A stretch of DNA of 63,539 nt, filler included, from Octopus bimaculoides (taxonomy: Eukaryota): NCBI RefSeq assembly GCF_001194135.2. It is 6 parts of 6 records of this genome, joined end to end, with 100 filler letters (N's around TTAATTAATTAA, not from the genome) between each part and the next. Parts side by side here need not be neighbours in the genome. Positions count along the whole stretch, not along the records: positions 15,333 to 30,184 come from NC_068982.1; positions 30,285 to 59,272 come from NC_068989.1; 4 more parts are not named here. The stretch is one strand, 5' to 3'. The notes beneath the pieces were generated by a model, which made no database searches, was not told the origin of the DNA, and saw nothing but the letters and a program-made list of their open reading frames with translations. The position numbers and the translations under genes are program-made. Positions 16,529 through 59,372 of this stretch are shown here, one piece after another (positions within the stretch are counted from its first letter, which is position 1; every line of letters begins with the position of its first letter).

Positions 16529-16946
16529 ATAAAGTCTCTTACTGGTGTTTCTAGAATAGCTGAGCATGTGGAACATATGTCATTGAACAAAGATTTCCAT
16601 GCAAGACAATTATTCCATCTTTGAAGCGAAAGGATCATTGAATATCTTTAATAAGGACATTAGTGGTTACCAGTTCAGTGAAGAATTAAGAAACATCCTT
16701 AGAGAAAGATAACAGTGGTTAGCAGTTACATGTCTGAAGAATTAATAACTAGTAAATCTCTACTAAAAGATAATAGCAGTTAGCAGTTCCATTGTTGAAG
16801 AATCAAGGAATGTTCTTGATAAAAGATTGTAGTTAGTTACTAATTCCCTCTCTGAAGATGGATAATCGGCTTACATGGAAATCTTTGCTCAATGACACAT
16901 GCTCCACATCTTCAGCTAGTCTAGAAACAGCTGTAAGAGACTTTAT
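16529..16946. repeat. Foldback with ~98-bp arms around four ~56-61-bp tandem units
   Basis: 16529-16626 is the reverse complement of 16850-16946; TGAAGA recurs at 16679, 16735, 16796 and 16853. Confidence 0.85.
16848..16939 (+). ncRNA. Candidate type I hammerhead ribozyme with an extended loop II
   Basis: CUCU-CUGAAGA-UGGAU...GUCUA-GAA-ACAGCUGU-A-AGAG: 4-bp stem I, full core, 5-bp stem II, palindromic stem III, GUA cleavage triplet. Confidence 0.5.
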
Positions 16947-17619
16947 GTATTATTTCTTTACCCCAATAACTATTCTGCAATTATGTTTGAATCATAGATT
17001 ACATACTTTAAAATGATACATTTTGCTTGTTCATTCTCTCTTCCTAGTGTGCGTGCATGCGTGCGTGCGTGCGTGTGTGAAGCATCATCATCATTACCGT
17101 TTAATGTTCGCTTTCCATGCTGGTATGGGTTTCTGATCTGGCAAGGCTTCCTAATGCCAACCACTCCGAGAATAACTCTAGTAGTTCAAACAAATCGCCT
17201 CTATTATTAATTTCATATGTACTTTACATAGATTATTTCTTTAAATGCTTTTATTCTGCTTGTCAGTTGTCAGGATAAAATGCTTCAACCCTTGCCATTT
17301 TTCTGTTATAAAAAATATAAAAAACATAAAATCTAACTCAAGTGACTGACAGGCAACATCTACCTTTTGGTCTAAAAACAATTTTGGTTATTAATTAAGC
17401 CCAGAACCATTTGTTGACCAATTTTAAAATTCAATGACACATGAATATGCATATATCCACTAAAATTTCATTACTCATAACTGTGGAAAGCAGTTTTAAA
17501 TACCAATCTAGCTTTTGTTGAAGAATGTCATGTTTAAAACTATTCCTTGTTGAGACCCGTCTAGTTTATTGAGGCAACATGACTTGCAGAAAATACCAAT
17601 TATATGTTTTGGTTAAATT

Positions 17620-18350
17620 TATGGAACCAGCATGCTTTGCTGGATGTGCAATGTCAGTGTGCATGCTTGACAGAGTGTAAGCATCTTGAGAGAAAAGTTG
17701 GGCATAAAAGGCATCAGATGTGGTGTGCAAGAGAGATGACTGTGCTGATATGGTCATGTGATGTGTATGGATAGAGGACAGTTGTGTAAAGAAGTGCTGA
17801 TCTCTAACTGTGGAAGGAACCTCTGTTAGAAGTAGACCCAGGAAGACATGGGACAAGATAGTGAAGCATGATCTTCGAACTTTGGGCCTCACAGAGGCAA
17901 TGACTAGTGACCAAGACCTTTGGCGATATGCTGTGCTTGAGAAGACCCATCAAGCCAAGTGACATCATATTCGTGGCTGATGCTGGTGTCATGTAACTGG
18001 CACCCGTGCTGGTGGCACGTAAAAATTACCTTTCAAGCATTGGGCCTCACAAAGGCAAAGTGGCTGAGCTCCTTATTTATGAGTGTTGGGCCTCACGGAG
18101 GCAATGACTGAGACCTTTGGCATTATGTCGTGCTTGAGAAGAAGACCCATCAAGCCAAGTAAAGTTACAGTCATGGTGTCACACAATGGCACCCATGCTG
18201 GTGGCACTTAAAAGCACCCATTACACTCTCTGAGTGGTTGGCATTAGAAAGGACATCCAGCCATAGAAACCATGCCAAATCAGACTGGAGTCCGGTACAG
18301 CCTTCTGACTTGTCAGCATGGACAATGGACATTAAATGATGATGATGATG
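17620..18350 (+). mobile_element. RTE-type LINE 3' end (older, CpG-decayed)
   Basis: LREKLGIKGIRCGVQER.., RPRKTWDKIVKHDLRTLGLTEAMTSDQDLWRYAVLEKTHQAK*, 3' UTR and (GAT)n tail. Confidence 0.85.
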
Positions 18351-19327
18351 AGTACTGGAATAAACATGATATTTGATTTTGCAGATAAAACGGTGAAATG
18401 AGCTTTCTCATTTAGCCAATCAACTTTAACCTCTCTTTTATTATCTTTTTGTTATACCTCACTTCCCCTATCCACCACTCTCAGAATTTCTTTAACAGCC
18501 CATAAGAGTAATCAGCTACTTGCCCTATCTCTTAACCTTTCAAATTCACTTGAATGAACCAGGACACACCACAAAACTTATAAATGTCAAAATTTATGAT
18601 GATATAAAAGATTTCTATATTTGACTATATTTTTCCTATTGAGTTCTTTATCAGATAAATACTTTGTTCAACATTAGCATAAAATTGTGTGTTTTTATGT
18701 ATACATGAAATCAGCAAAGGTTTGAGCATGGCTGAGTGGTTAAGAAGCTCAAATCCCACTGTGATCGATTTTGCTTTTCATCTTTCCAGGGTTGATAAAA
18801 TAAAGTACCAATCAAATATTAGTATTGATTTGATTGTCTACCGATCTCTGCCCATAGGAATCAAGGTTGCATGATGCAGTCAAACTCAAATCCCTGCTCA
18901 ATCATTGAGTTTCAATGACAGTTAAGTAATACAAAGTTGGAAAATCCTGCCATTACATAAATATTGTCTGGAACACCATCTCTATGATTACTGATACAAC
19001 ACACAAATCCTTCCATTCACTTACACATATACATACATTCTCTGAAATTAGACCCTCTTATGAGGATCAATACAAGAGAAAAAGAAGCAGCACCAAGGTC
19101 ATAAAAATATACAAGACTCTAAATCTCTATGTACATGGCAGCAACCATATCCCTAATTCTTGCAAGCCACTCCAAACATTTTGAACTAGATTGTAAAAAT
19201 ATGTTTATTAAAAAAGATATTTTTATTTCATCGAAGAAACATTTCACAGATTATCACAGTTATGAAATATAATACAGACAAATATTAGAAACAAATAAAA
19301 CACAAACTAGAAAATCAGTTTGGAACT

Positions 19328-56734: not shown

Positions 56735-57495
56735 CATGCCAGAATCGTTAGCACGCAATGCAAAATGCTCAGCGTCATGTCAACCGTCTTTACGTTCTAA
56801 GCTCAAATTCCACCGAGGTCCACTTTACCTTTCATCCTCTCGAATTCGATAAAACAAGTACCAGTTGATCACTAGGAATGATGTAATCTACTTACCCTCT
56901 GTCCCGAAATTACTGGACATGTGCCAAAATTTGACAACAGAATTTTTTTTTTTTTTTTTTCTATATCAAGGCAGCGAGGTGGCAGAATCGTTAGCACACC
57001 GGACATAATGCTTAGCTACATTTCGTCCATCTTTACGTTTTGAGTTCAAACTTCACCGAGGTCGATTTACCTTTAATCTTTTCGGGGTCAATAAAATGAG
57101 TACCAGTTCAGCACTAGAATTGATGTAATCTACTTACCCTCAGCCCTGAAAATGCTGGCTTTGTGCCAAAATTTGGCAGCAGTATATATGTGTGTGTGTG
57201 TGTGTGTGTGTGTGTGTGTGTGTGTGTGTGTGTGTGTGTGTGTGTGTGTGTGTGTGTGTGTGTGTGTGTGTGTGTATTGTATTAAAGTGGCAAGCTGGTA
57301 CAGTCTCTTAAGCACGCCGGACAAAATGCTCAGCGGCATTTCGTCCGTCTTTGCTTTCTGAGCTCAATCTTCGCCGAGGTCGATCTTGCCTTTCATCTTT
57401 TCGAAATCGATAAAATAAGTGTCATCTGAGGTTGATGTAATTGACTTACCCGCTCCTTCGTACTTGTTGGTCTTATGCCAAAATTTAAAACCAAT
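56735..57495 (+). mobile_element. Three tandem SINE family A copies (~56735-56935, 56968-57175, 57285-57495)
   Basis: Repeated consensus separated by poly-T and (TG)n. Confidence 0.85.
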
Positions 57496-57774
57496 GTTAT
57501 TTATATTCTAGCAGTACGTAAGAGAGAAAACTTAAGGCAAGTTATAACAGGTTGAGCAGTGATTAATATATTCTAAAATTGTCAATAACGAGATATTGTA
57601 TAATTCACGAAAAGTTTCTTCAATTTATTGTTGTCTTCTGTGCAAGATTCAAGATCTGCCTTTCTTAGTTACAGATAGATATTTGGCTAATTTAGTAATC
57701 ACAACGCTAAACGTGTCTAATCATAAATGCATATGTAAAATCTCTAACTTATATTAACTATTTCCGGTTGTCTT

Positions 57775-57960
57775 TTTTGTTGTTGTTGTTGTTGGTAGTG
57801 GTGGTGGTGATGGTGGTGCTGGTGCTGGTGGTGCTGGTGCTGGTGGCGGTGGTGTTGCTGTTGTTGCTGTTTGTTTTGTTGTTGTTGTTGTTGTTGTTGT
57901 TAGTAGTAGTAGTAGTAGTAGTAGTAGTAGTAGTAGCAGCAAGTGGTCGTCGTCGGCGGC
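57775..57960. repeat. Patchwork (TTG/GTG/CTG/GTA)n trinucleotide array
   Basis: Direct reading. Confidence 0.9.
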
Positions 57961-59372
57961 GATGTTATTCATGTCGTTGCTGTTGATAGTACTTTATATT
58001 TCGACTAATTTAAACCACTATTGTGCTTGTTCAATTGTATCCATCTGATTATTTGTGTTTAATCAAATTCCCACACATTTAATAGTTAATAGAATACTTT
58101 AGAGATAATGAAACAAATTATAATAAAATTCTTCTCTCGTTACAGTAAGTTTCATTTCTACATTGTCTAACCAGAGATCCAATCTTTCATTTTCTTTTCC
58201 AATATATCGCTTCGTATTGACTACAATATATTTATTTCATTTCTATGAGGGCACGGATTGTCCTGATGAAGGTTTGGTTACGGTTTTTAGTGACCAGGTA
58301 GGAAATGCATTATGACCACACTGTTACACACCTCCCCACTCGATGAACTGTTTGATGTGGCATAATTTCAGTTGAATTAAATGGACATGTGATAATTAAC
58401 AGCTATTGTTGCCAGGAATTACGCCATATAACATACTTAATGGTATTTTGTACATCTATCTTTACATTTTGATCTCAAATTCCGCCGAATTCTGTTCTAC
58501 TTTTCGTCCATTTGTAATCAGTAAATTAAGTACCAAGCAAGTACTAGGGTTAATGTAAGCGATTAAACGCTCGGCAAATGTTTCAAGCCTTGTATTTATA
58601 GCAGAAATATTTATTATTGGGAATATTGCACAATTAAATCCAAATACGCAATGAGTTATAGTGATCAACTTGAAAAATAAGACTTTTCTTTATCTCTGGT
58701 GGGGAAAGGAAAATGGACATTGTCACTTCCTTACCTTGTCCATGAGCATTTATAGTGTAATTCTAAAAGAAAGTTGTATACAACGATAGCAAACATAGCG
58801 AAAATAGCAAAAGTACTGTTCTCAAATTAGCAACACTGCTTAATTCACAAAAATAGAATAACTTGTTTAATGAAACTCATTTTTGTGAGAAGAGCTGCAC
58901 GCCTTAATGAAATCAACAATATGTTACATGTGTTTTTCGGGTTTTTCGGAAATTGATCAAAGACAAATTCGATCCCAATGCTTTTTATCTGAAGATGCAA
59001 AGAGAGAAAATAATGGTACAAGGCTTCGTTTCTAATGAAAGTAATATGCACACACAGATACACACTCATCTGTGTATGTGCGTGTATGTGTGTATGTGTA
59101 TGCGTGTGTATTGGTATGTATAAAATATAATATACATAATATATATAAGCATATGTATGTGTCTATATGTATGCATGTGTATATGTATGTATATATGTAT
59201 GTATGTGTGTATGTATGTGTGTGTGTGTGTGTGTGTGTGTGTGTGTGTGTGTGTGTGTGTGTGTGTGTGTGTNNNNNNNNNNNNNNNNNNNNNNNNNNNN
59301 NNNNNNNNNNNNNNNNTTAATTAATTAANNNNNNNNNNNNNNNNNNNNNNNNNNNNNNNNNNNNNNNNNNNN

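Follow-up and report, generated by a model that had tools for sequence, protein, structure and literature searches.

This report concerns small hammerhead ribozyme motifs in a stretch of DNA from Octopus bimaculoides and the Penelope-like elements (PLEs) to which most of them appear to belong. The window, that is, the whole stretch of DNA that was analysed, is 63,539 nucleotides (nt) long and microsatellite-rich, with a GC content of 33% and an N count of 3,523; the host genome assembly has a size of 2.34 Gb. When the window is placed at 100% identity, 16.8-20.9 kb falls on contig C2, 36.9-58.4 kb on C9 and 59.4-62.0 kb on C47767, therefore the motifs are not one physical cluster in that assembly, from which the window differs in its scaffolding. 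A sequence-only reading of the window had described five core strings, each with a palindrome, and all five are present as stated, with cores at 16852 (+), 19592 (+), 20829 (+), 46490 (-) and 58263 (+). That inventory missed a further hammerhead at 36959-37000 (-). The families are named here after their window copies as A (16852), B (19592), C (46490), E (20829) and G (36994, minus strand); family F lies outside the window. The hammerheads and the insertions that carry them are listed below, where RT stands for reverse transcriptase.

16079 to 16858 (-): inverted arm of the family-A insertion whose hammerhead follows; the longer 3' tail is here, and the layout is PLE-type, head to head
16848 to 16939 (+): minimal hammerhead of family A, with its core at 16852-16858, a stem II region of 65 nt and the palindrome ACAGCUGU; the cut is predicted after A16935
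19416 to 19483 (-): inverted 5' piece of family B, with 26 nt of post-stop spacer and the first 41 nt of a tRNA-like head (A box)
19537 to 19684 (+): family B body, the part of the end repeat without the ~40-nt tail
19587 to 19632 (+): family B minimal hammerhead; core 19592-19598, unpaired A followed by a stem II of 5 bp; the palindrome is ACGU and the site GUU, and the cut is predicted after 19627
20420 to 20951 (no strand given): family-E insertion in a fold-back (inverted) layout
20829 to 20904 (+): family E hammerhead, a decayed copy; its palindrome is broken, and the family majority is ACAGCUGU-A
31026 to 31381 (no strand given): second family-B insertion, head to head with a one-sided tail; both cores are shortened at the 5' side
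36959 to 37000 (-): family G hammerhead; U3-A8 core, palindrome ACUAGU, within the fold-back 36711-37216
46458 to 46493 (-): family C minimal hammerhead in a stub, ~150 nt long, that comes from the 3' end repeat of a PLE with RT and GIY-YIG; palindrome AUAU, AUC site, predicted cut after C46461

Motif statistics and family relationships

The full descriptor consists of the core, a palindrome of at least 4 nt, a stem I of at least 3 bp and a stem II of at least 4 bp. It has three matches in the window (16852, 19592 and 46490) and none in each of 200 local dinucleotide shuffles. The core and palindrome alone are matched five times against a shuffle mean of 1.45, and five matches were reached in 3 of the 200 shuffles, therefore this weaker pattern proves no single site. 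The same comparison was made for a genome sample made up of 80 stretches of 10 kb at even spacing (714,095 bases other than N), with 20 shuffles as the control, and a relaxed descriptor gave 17 matches in the sample against 1.15 in the shuffles. Five perfect palindromes, each of a different sequence, were found in the sample and none in its shuffles. In both the window and the sample the motifs are more frequent than in shuffled DNA, and the proposal that this genome hosts a diverse set of hammerheads holds. Scaled to the whole genome, the sample corresponds to roughly 46,000 hammerhead motifs, a rough figure. When variants of the core were allowed, U3-A8 and C4 motifs with perfect palindromes were added, including the one at 36994 (-) in the window.

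Genome searches returned 251 candidates for family A, 2886 for family B, 1312 for family C, 1773 for family E and 1506 for family G. For families A, B, C and E, 30 loci each were tallied, with the window copy included and one locus doubled in three of the sets; the loci are the best matches to the window copies and not random draws. With either U4 or C4 accepted as an intact core, an intact core and a perfect palindrome were found together in 8 of 30 loci for family A, 20 of 30 for family B, 27 of 30 for family C and 13 of 30 for family E. The 5' core is intact in 29 of 30 loci for both B and C and in 25 of 30 for E, and the core of family G is kept in 19 of the 20 loci listed. The majority palindromes are ACGU (B), AUAU (C) and ACAGCUGU (A and E). 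The family-E majority also restores the sequence that had been guessed for the mutated palindrome at 20829.

It is largely confirmed that motifs A, B, C and E are real and that each belongs to a dispersed family, while the string at 58263 is not supported. The earlier description of the families as unrelated is overstated: A and E belong to a common subtype, and there are three types of stem III, not four. Both have ACAGCUGU-A (A17), a long stem II that is closed by a mismatch, and an insert of 54-65 nt in this stem, and it is because of these features and the shared palindrome that the two are taken as one subtype. At the base of stem II, family E has an A.A mismatch followed by G-C; family A has a C.A mismatch followed by G.U, which is a departure. 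The majorities of families B and C have an unpaired base between positions 9 and 10.1, followed by G10.1-C11.1. When the window, 10 loci and a 311-nt stretch of family B were scanned with Rfam, no hammerhead family was recognised, and the matches obtained were mostly microsatellite-driven miRNA noise. The broad phenomenon, many palindromic minimal hammerheads in PLE ends, is already known.

Families B and C and their parent elements

Family C is a plain PLE end repeat that lies behind an open reading frame (ORF) with RT and GIY-YIG parts. Two family-C loci extend upstream into the C-terminus of the GIY-YIG domain, and in 16 of 19 further loci fetched with a GIY-YIG end the hammerhead lies ~280 nt after the stop codon. 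In Pfam, three of five fragments of the ORF matched RVT_1 (E 7e-5) and GIY-YIG (E 2e-4), both below the cut-off. Of 29 distinct loci, 10 have an inverted upstream copy; the ends are unequal, and one arm bears a tail of ~40 nt. Family C is without a tRNA-like head and its 5' truncation is gradual. Immediately behind the family-C stub of the window, at 43270-46307 (-), there is a decayed ORF of a non-LTR (long terminal repeat) retrotransposon with a weak RVT_1 match.

A short copy of family B is ~300 nt long and is made up of a tRNA-like head in which A and B boxes can be seen, an (AAT)n stretch, the hammerhead body and a tail. The 714-kb sample holds seven copies, which corresponds to a rough ~20,000 genome-wide. 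A search with the window's own inverted family-B piece revealed that a spacer precedes the head. Further upstream, 11 of 29 leader-bearing loci have in common a stretch that can be read as an RT-thumb/GIY-YIG ORF, and the PLE stop codon lies 24 nt before the head. Several of the ORF-bearing loci run on into the same hammerhead, so the head lies inside the 3' end repeat (pLTR) of a PLE. The family-B ORF matches the family-C RT in BLASTP (E 1e-8; GIY-YIG part only, E 0.006) and the HTH_animal/GIY-YIG clusters of the Atlas at 0.94. Pfam gave no match for three of three frameshifted pieces of this ORF. With both B and C behind RT/GIY-YIG ORFs, the link between minimal type I hammerheads and Penelope-like elements that had been drawn for this DNA is borne out.

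The insertion scar of family B was examined with the duplicate locus L014 excluded; 3 of the 29 loci have no head in range. An upstream inverted segment is found in 21 of 29 loci. The tail is one-sided in 24 of the 25 two-ended loci and never occurs on both sides. Target duplications of 9-14 bp are present in 13 of 25 loci, versus a maximum of 8 in a control of 25 mismatched pairs. Inserted family-B copies extend 55-100 nt past the predicted cut, therefore the RNA that was copied would have been uncut at this ribozyme or re-joined.

The tRNA-like head of family B

Colinear alignment of the head to genuine tRNA genes from this genome gives best z values of 8.1 (Ala) and 7.6 (Arg). The head agrees with them at 47-48 of 75 positions and lies above every shuffle for 11 of 17. 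The A and B boxes are visible and both are kept in the family-B majority, and the sense strand of the family-B reference unit lacks any stretch of four T.

The 5' ends of family-B copies were counted against a reference that included the spacer and the ORF. In 20 of 26 head-bearing loci, which were selected by their body, the 5'-most base lies within -11 to +9 of the head start. Three of the 26 stop earlier, over the preceding 72 nt, and three reach -19 to -37. An internal start by RNA polymerase III (Pol III) would give such a pattern and thus explain the cliff at the 5' edge of the head. That all family-B copies begin at the head was considered and is ruled out by the upstream spacer and the ORF-bearing loci. 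The 5' ends fall in two small clusters, at about -2 to +3 and at +6 to +9, the second of which matches the position at which a mature tRNA would begin. Within the family-B body of the window, a second B-box-like string lies at 19560-19580, just 5' of the hammerhead, and is possibly another tRNA relic.

Family-B words occur in DNA-sized sequencing runs of five related organisms (shares 0.49-0.57), and none of the sequencing runs listed as containing them is recorded as RNA. Three raw RNA runs of ~12 million reads each were also used, whose source organism may be a relative of the species of the window.

Families A, E, F and G and variants of the core

Family A is an old family. Among the cores of its 30 loci there are 8 CUGAAGA, 4 CCGAAGA (U4C), 14 with A at position 5 and 4 others, so that the forms CUG, CCG (U4C) and CCA (G5A) occur. 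These cores suggest a C4 master, with some of the CUG forms produced by CpG decay, and the canonical-looking core of family A in the window may be secondary. The ribozyme of the G5A subfamily is likely dead. Families A and E have inverted arms with unequal tails of about 170 and 90 nt, respectively. By eye, no target duplication was seen around long family-A copies.

A second family-A subfamily carries an antisense hAT-like fragment upstream, and its palindrome is broken. Its 5' ends lie at a hAT-like terminus and its 3' ends are PLE-type. The long family-A copies (L341-L370) are a ~1.5-kb chimera of the hAT-like terminus, an antisense transposase fragment, the G5A hammerhead and a PLE-type 3' end, and 14 of 30 loci have the same sharp left end. 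In the window, three to four imperfect ~55-nt family-A repeats are found at 16660-16840; in the long copies these lie between the hammerhead and the hAT-like fragment. That the subfamily moved as a DNA transposon was considered and was not supported: the hAT-like terminus is confined to the left end, and neither a right end to match it nor a duplication was seen. The hAT label comes from a weak match to another relic of the window (E 1.6e-5) and from sequence motifs, and Pfam and the Atlas did not confirm it.

Family F (L132:7230-7380, L222-L246) has a U4C core, an 8-nt palindrome and an extended stem I. It is very young, as 38 of 41 listed matches are 100% identical over 151 nt, and it forms a permuted head-to-tail unit of ~340 nt. 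An in-line PLE ORF was sought upstream of families F and G and none was found; for family F this region is obscured by assembly gaps. Family F is present in the RNA runs with extra A>G differences that are absent from the DNA run. Further hammerhead types were seen in the random sample (L123, L139, L147, L158, L170-L173), with palindromes of 8-10 nt; the one in L139 has another C4 core, with ACAGCUGU-A. For a viroid hammerhead it has been reported that U4C is much weaker in vitro yet sufficient in vivo (PMC3088659); this and the other papers cited by number are represented here by parts of their texts.

Proposed mechanism and alternative explanations

It is thought, with good confidence, that all five motifs except 58263 represent minimal type I hammerheads in the pLTRs of PLEs, that they are stubs left by integration which should cut only as palindrome-paired copies, and that the family-B head likely drives a Pol III transcript that is copied by the enzymes of the parent element as a ~300-nt unit resembling a short interspersed nuclear element (SINE). 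The RT of the PLE would copy the RNA starting at the 3' end of the pLTR, and the GIY-YIG endonuclease would integrate the copy and leave truncated, often inverted stubs. A palindrome of 4 nt cannot close helix III in a monomer, therefore cutting would need a partner copy. Dimer-dependent cutting is established for the minimal hammerhead class (PMC4209133, PMC6765202). Most single genomic stubs are likely inert. For family B, an internal start at the head would add an abundant short template, and the parent PLE enzymes would copy this Pol III transcript as the SINE-like unit. That such a start supplies short template in excess is considered moderately probable. The wider proposal is that the end repeat of a PLE acquired a Pol III promoter of tRNA origin and so gave rise to a ~300-nt ribozyme-bearing SINE that is copied by Penelope enzymes and not by those of a long interspersed nuclear element (LINE), and that, with U4C cores in whole families including a very young one, U4 is dispensable for the role of the ribozymes. 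This proposal falls just on the probable side.

Several results weigh against these views. In the minimum-energy folds predicted for monomers of families B, F and G, the core is tied up in an inactive pairing, and the duplex energies of the 4-nt palindromes are -1.7 (B) and +1.6 kcal/mol (C). No in-line PLE ORF was found for families A or E; a GIY-YIG-like piece was found in 1 of 30 and 1 of 48 loci, respectively, in both cases on the opposite strand. The hAT-linked subfamily of family A has spread though 18 of 19 aligned cores are without G5. ARAGORN at default settings found 0 tRNAs in 30 family-B loci and gave noise at a lowered threshold, and Rfam does not recognise the family-B head. In the three RNA runs there are 6980, 5343 and 4852 family-B reads, with both strands equal, and 72-73% of these reads continue into unlike flanks. 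In none of the three runs is there a point at which many of them start or stop. Family-B reads look like passive read-through and give no support for cutting or for a start by Pol III. Among the family-B read joints listed, none lies at the predicted cut, and family F has no end pile-up in the RNA runs either, although libraries of fragmented cDNA may fail to reveal such ends.

Could the head of family B be a dead tRNA fragment in the 3' untranslated region of an ordinary PLE? The short copies would then all be 5'-truncated products of the full transcript of RNA polymerase II, on which RT tends to halt at this structured stretch, and there would be no separate SINE. This explanation is possible and rather unlikely. 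It is consistent with the head being physically part of ORF-bearing copies, with the three short copies of 26 that reach -19 to -37 and with one sampled copy that extends into the ORF, as far as -140. The head has a decayed acceptor stem and goes undetected by ARAGORN and Rfam, and the RNA data show no defined start. However, the copies are lost at the 5' edge of the head, whereas RT would encounter the structure first from its 3' edge. Three are lost over 72 nt and then 20 of the remaining 23 within 21 nt, whereas the headless family C truncates gradually. The preservation of both boxes in the family majority and the lack of a sense-strand run of four T in the unit also weigh against this explanation.

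A second alternative is that the motifs belong to retrozymes, that is, non-coding tandem units which are cut by hammerheads, circularised and copied from circular RNA. Animal retrozymes have been proposed to be PLE derivatives (10.64898/2026.07.22.740005), and the permuted ~340-nt unit of family F, outside the window, has the expected head-to-tail form, as does one family-B locus of 29 (L013/L014). This explanation is nevertheless improbable for the window. Families B and C are continuous with PLE ORFs, family-B copies begin at the head and not at the predicted cut, and circular permutation was not seen for A, B, C or E; apart from the family-B tandem, no tandem or permuted unit bounded by the ribozyme cut was found for A, C or E. 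The window motifs are dispersed end-repeat stubs and not tandem retrozyme arrays. Chance matches in AT-rich repetitive DNA are extremely improbable as an explanation and are refuted for A, B, C and E, because the full descriptor is absent from all window shuffles, the family majorities restore cores and palindromes and the motifs stand at the known sites of PLE ribozymes, although the rate at which the core and palindrome alone arise in shuffled windows fits 58263 and a similar string at 22117, and Rfam is without a match to the motifs.

Other elements in the window

Two further features of the window are as follows.

50745 to 51285 (-): decayed ORF fragment of a GIY-YIG PLE; no hammerhead downstream, and unrelated to the family B and C ORFs
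58260 to 58316 (+): core-like string with AUGCAU in which proper junctions of stems I and II are lacking; present once; due to chance or else a very old relic

The string at 58263 had been taken as a separate AUGCAU family. It fails both the stem I and the stem II test of the descriptor; it has a 9-bp hairpin but lacks proper junctions. A DNA search of the genome gave one match, which is the string itself. A pattern search with a 24-mer and 3 mismatches gave 2 non-self matches, versus 1 for the control, and a local low-word BLAST found no relatives. A separate family is thus unsupported, and that the string is a very old relic is conceivable and somewhat doubtful. Core-like strings without proper stems also occur at 22117-22158 (+) and 35440 (-) and are probably chance matches or parts of other repeats.

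The GIY-YIG relic that had been noted near 50.7 kb is real, though weak (Pfam E 0.0034, below the cut-off). Its connection with any motif of the window was rejected, since no hammerhead was found behind the ORF and it does not match the proteins of family B or C. Transposase relics at 38427-39027 (+) and 53866-54667 (-), which by their motifs we take to be Tc1/mariner-like and hAT-like, respectively, have no Pfam match. Another abundant short repeat with a tRNA-like end is unrelated to hammerheads and is found at 58420-58630, 8300-8510, 11750-13620, 34440-34535 and 56790-57140.

Significance

If the proposal for family B is correct, this family would be a PLE-dependent SINE with an identifiable autonomous parent. 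It would offer a 300-nt substrate that defines what the RT and endonuclease of a PLE need in cis, as well as a direct route for the birth of a SINE, caught beside its parent element. The in vivo role of PLE hammerheads has been called a mystery (PMC7761336). The octopus genome offers natural controls for this question, as its families, which differ in age, carry cores of the canonical, U4C, U3-A8 and G5A forms. The spread of a subfamily whose core is likely dead and the copies that run past the predicted cut make the need for cleavage in retrotransposition testable.

Comparison with known systems

In the work of Cervera and de la Pena in 2014 (PMC4209133), animal genomes are described as containing thousands of variable minimal hammerhead ribozymes (min-HHRs) each, mostly in truncated PLE ends. 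These have an unpaired base before stem II and a palindromic helix III, occur in inverted pairs and show a low activity that depends on dimers. The octopus motifs share with the pLTR min-HHRs the near absence of helix III with a palindromic 15-16 segment, the unpaired base between 9 and 10.1 and the U3-A8 variant. They also share the occurrence of many variable families, mostly as single truncated copies, with inverted pairs 100-700 bp apart. Families A and E differ from these min-HHRs by their 54-65-nt stem II insert. The parts of PMC4209133 consulted make no mention of an octopus-type genome, a tRNA-like promoter in a pLTR or U4C cores, although its species lists and alignments may already include mollusc or U4C motifs. 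The tRNA-like head in the family-B pLTR and the U4C cores may be new relative to known PLE hammerheads. No description of octopus PLE hammerheads or of a tRNA promoter inside a pLTR was found in the literature searched, a scope that lay outside repeat databases, supplements and most subscription papers.

Inverted copies and one-sided tails are marks of PLEs (PMC8557442). The endonuclease-bearing (EN+) PLEs Penelope/Poseidon, Neptune and Naiad described by Craig et al. in 2021 (PMC8557442) have the same 5' truncation, inverted 5' copy, 30-40-bp tail at one end only and microsatellite bias, and their GIY-YIG domain is C-terminal to the RT, as in families B and C. The octopus elements differ from them in the preferred 5' end of family B at an internal tRNA-like head and in the longer tails of families A and E.

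The Sm-alpha and Sj-alpha repeats of Schistosoma (PMC6765202) resemble family B in that each is a short non-coding repeat in which a hammerhead comes after a Pol III-type promoter. They differ in being tandem repeats that are cut into monomers, and no PLE parent is named for them in the part of the source available; family B consists of dispersed copies with a minimal ribozyme, and the PLE whose end repeat it forms can be identified. The non-LTR retrozymes of animals (PMC7229834, PMC7761336, 10.64898/2026.07.22.740005) are likewise non-coding hammerhead repeats for which PLE enzymes and kinship with pLTRs have been proposed, but they are tandem units that form circular RNA. None of the words tRNA, promoter and octopus appears in 10.64898/2026.07.22.740005.

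Octopus tRNA retroposons (Ohshima and Okada 1994) are cited in PMC4758252. Like tRNA-derived SINEs, family B has a head that resembles a tRNA and shows A and B boxes, a length of about 300 nt and a very high copy number. No 3' end shared with a partner LINE was found, and the whole family-B unit is the 3' end of a PLE. Family B is SINE-like in its working yet not LINE-dependent, and it differs from tRNA-derived SINEs in that its 3' end and its insertion scar are of the PLE type and not of the LINE type.

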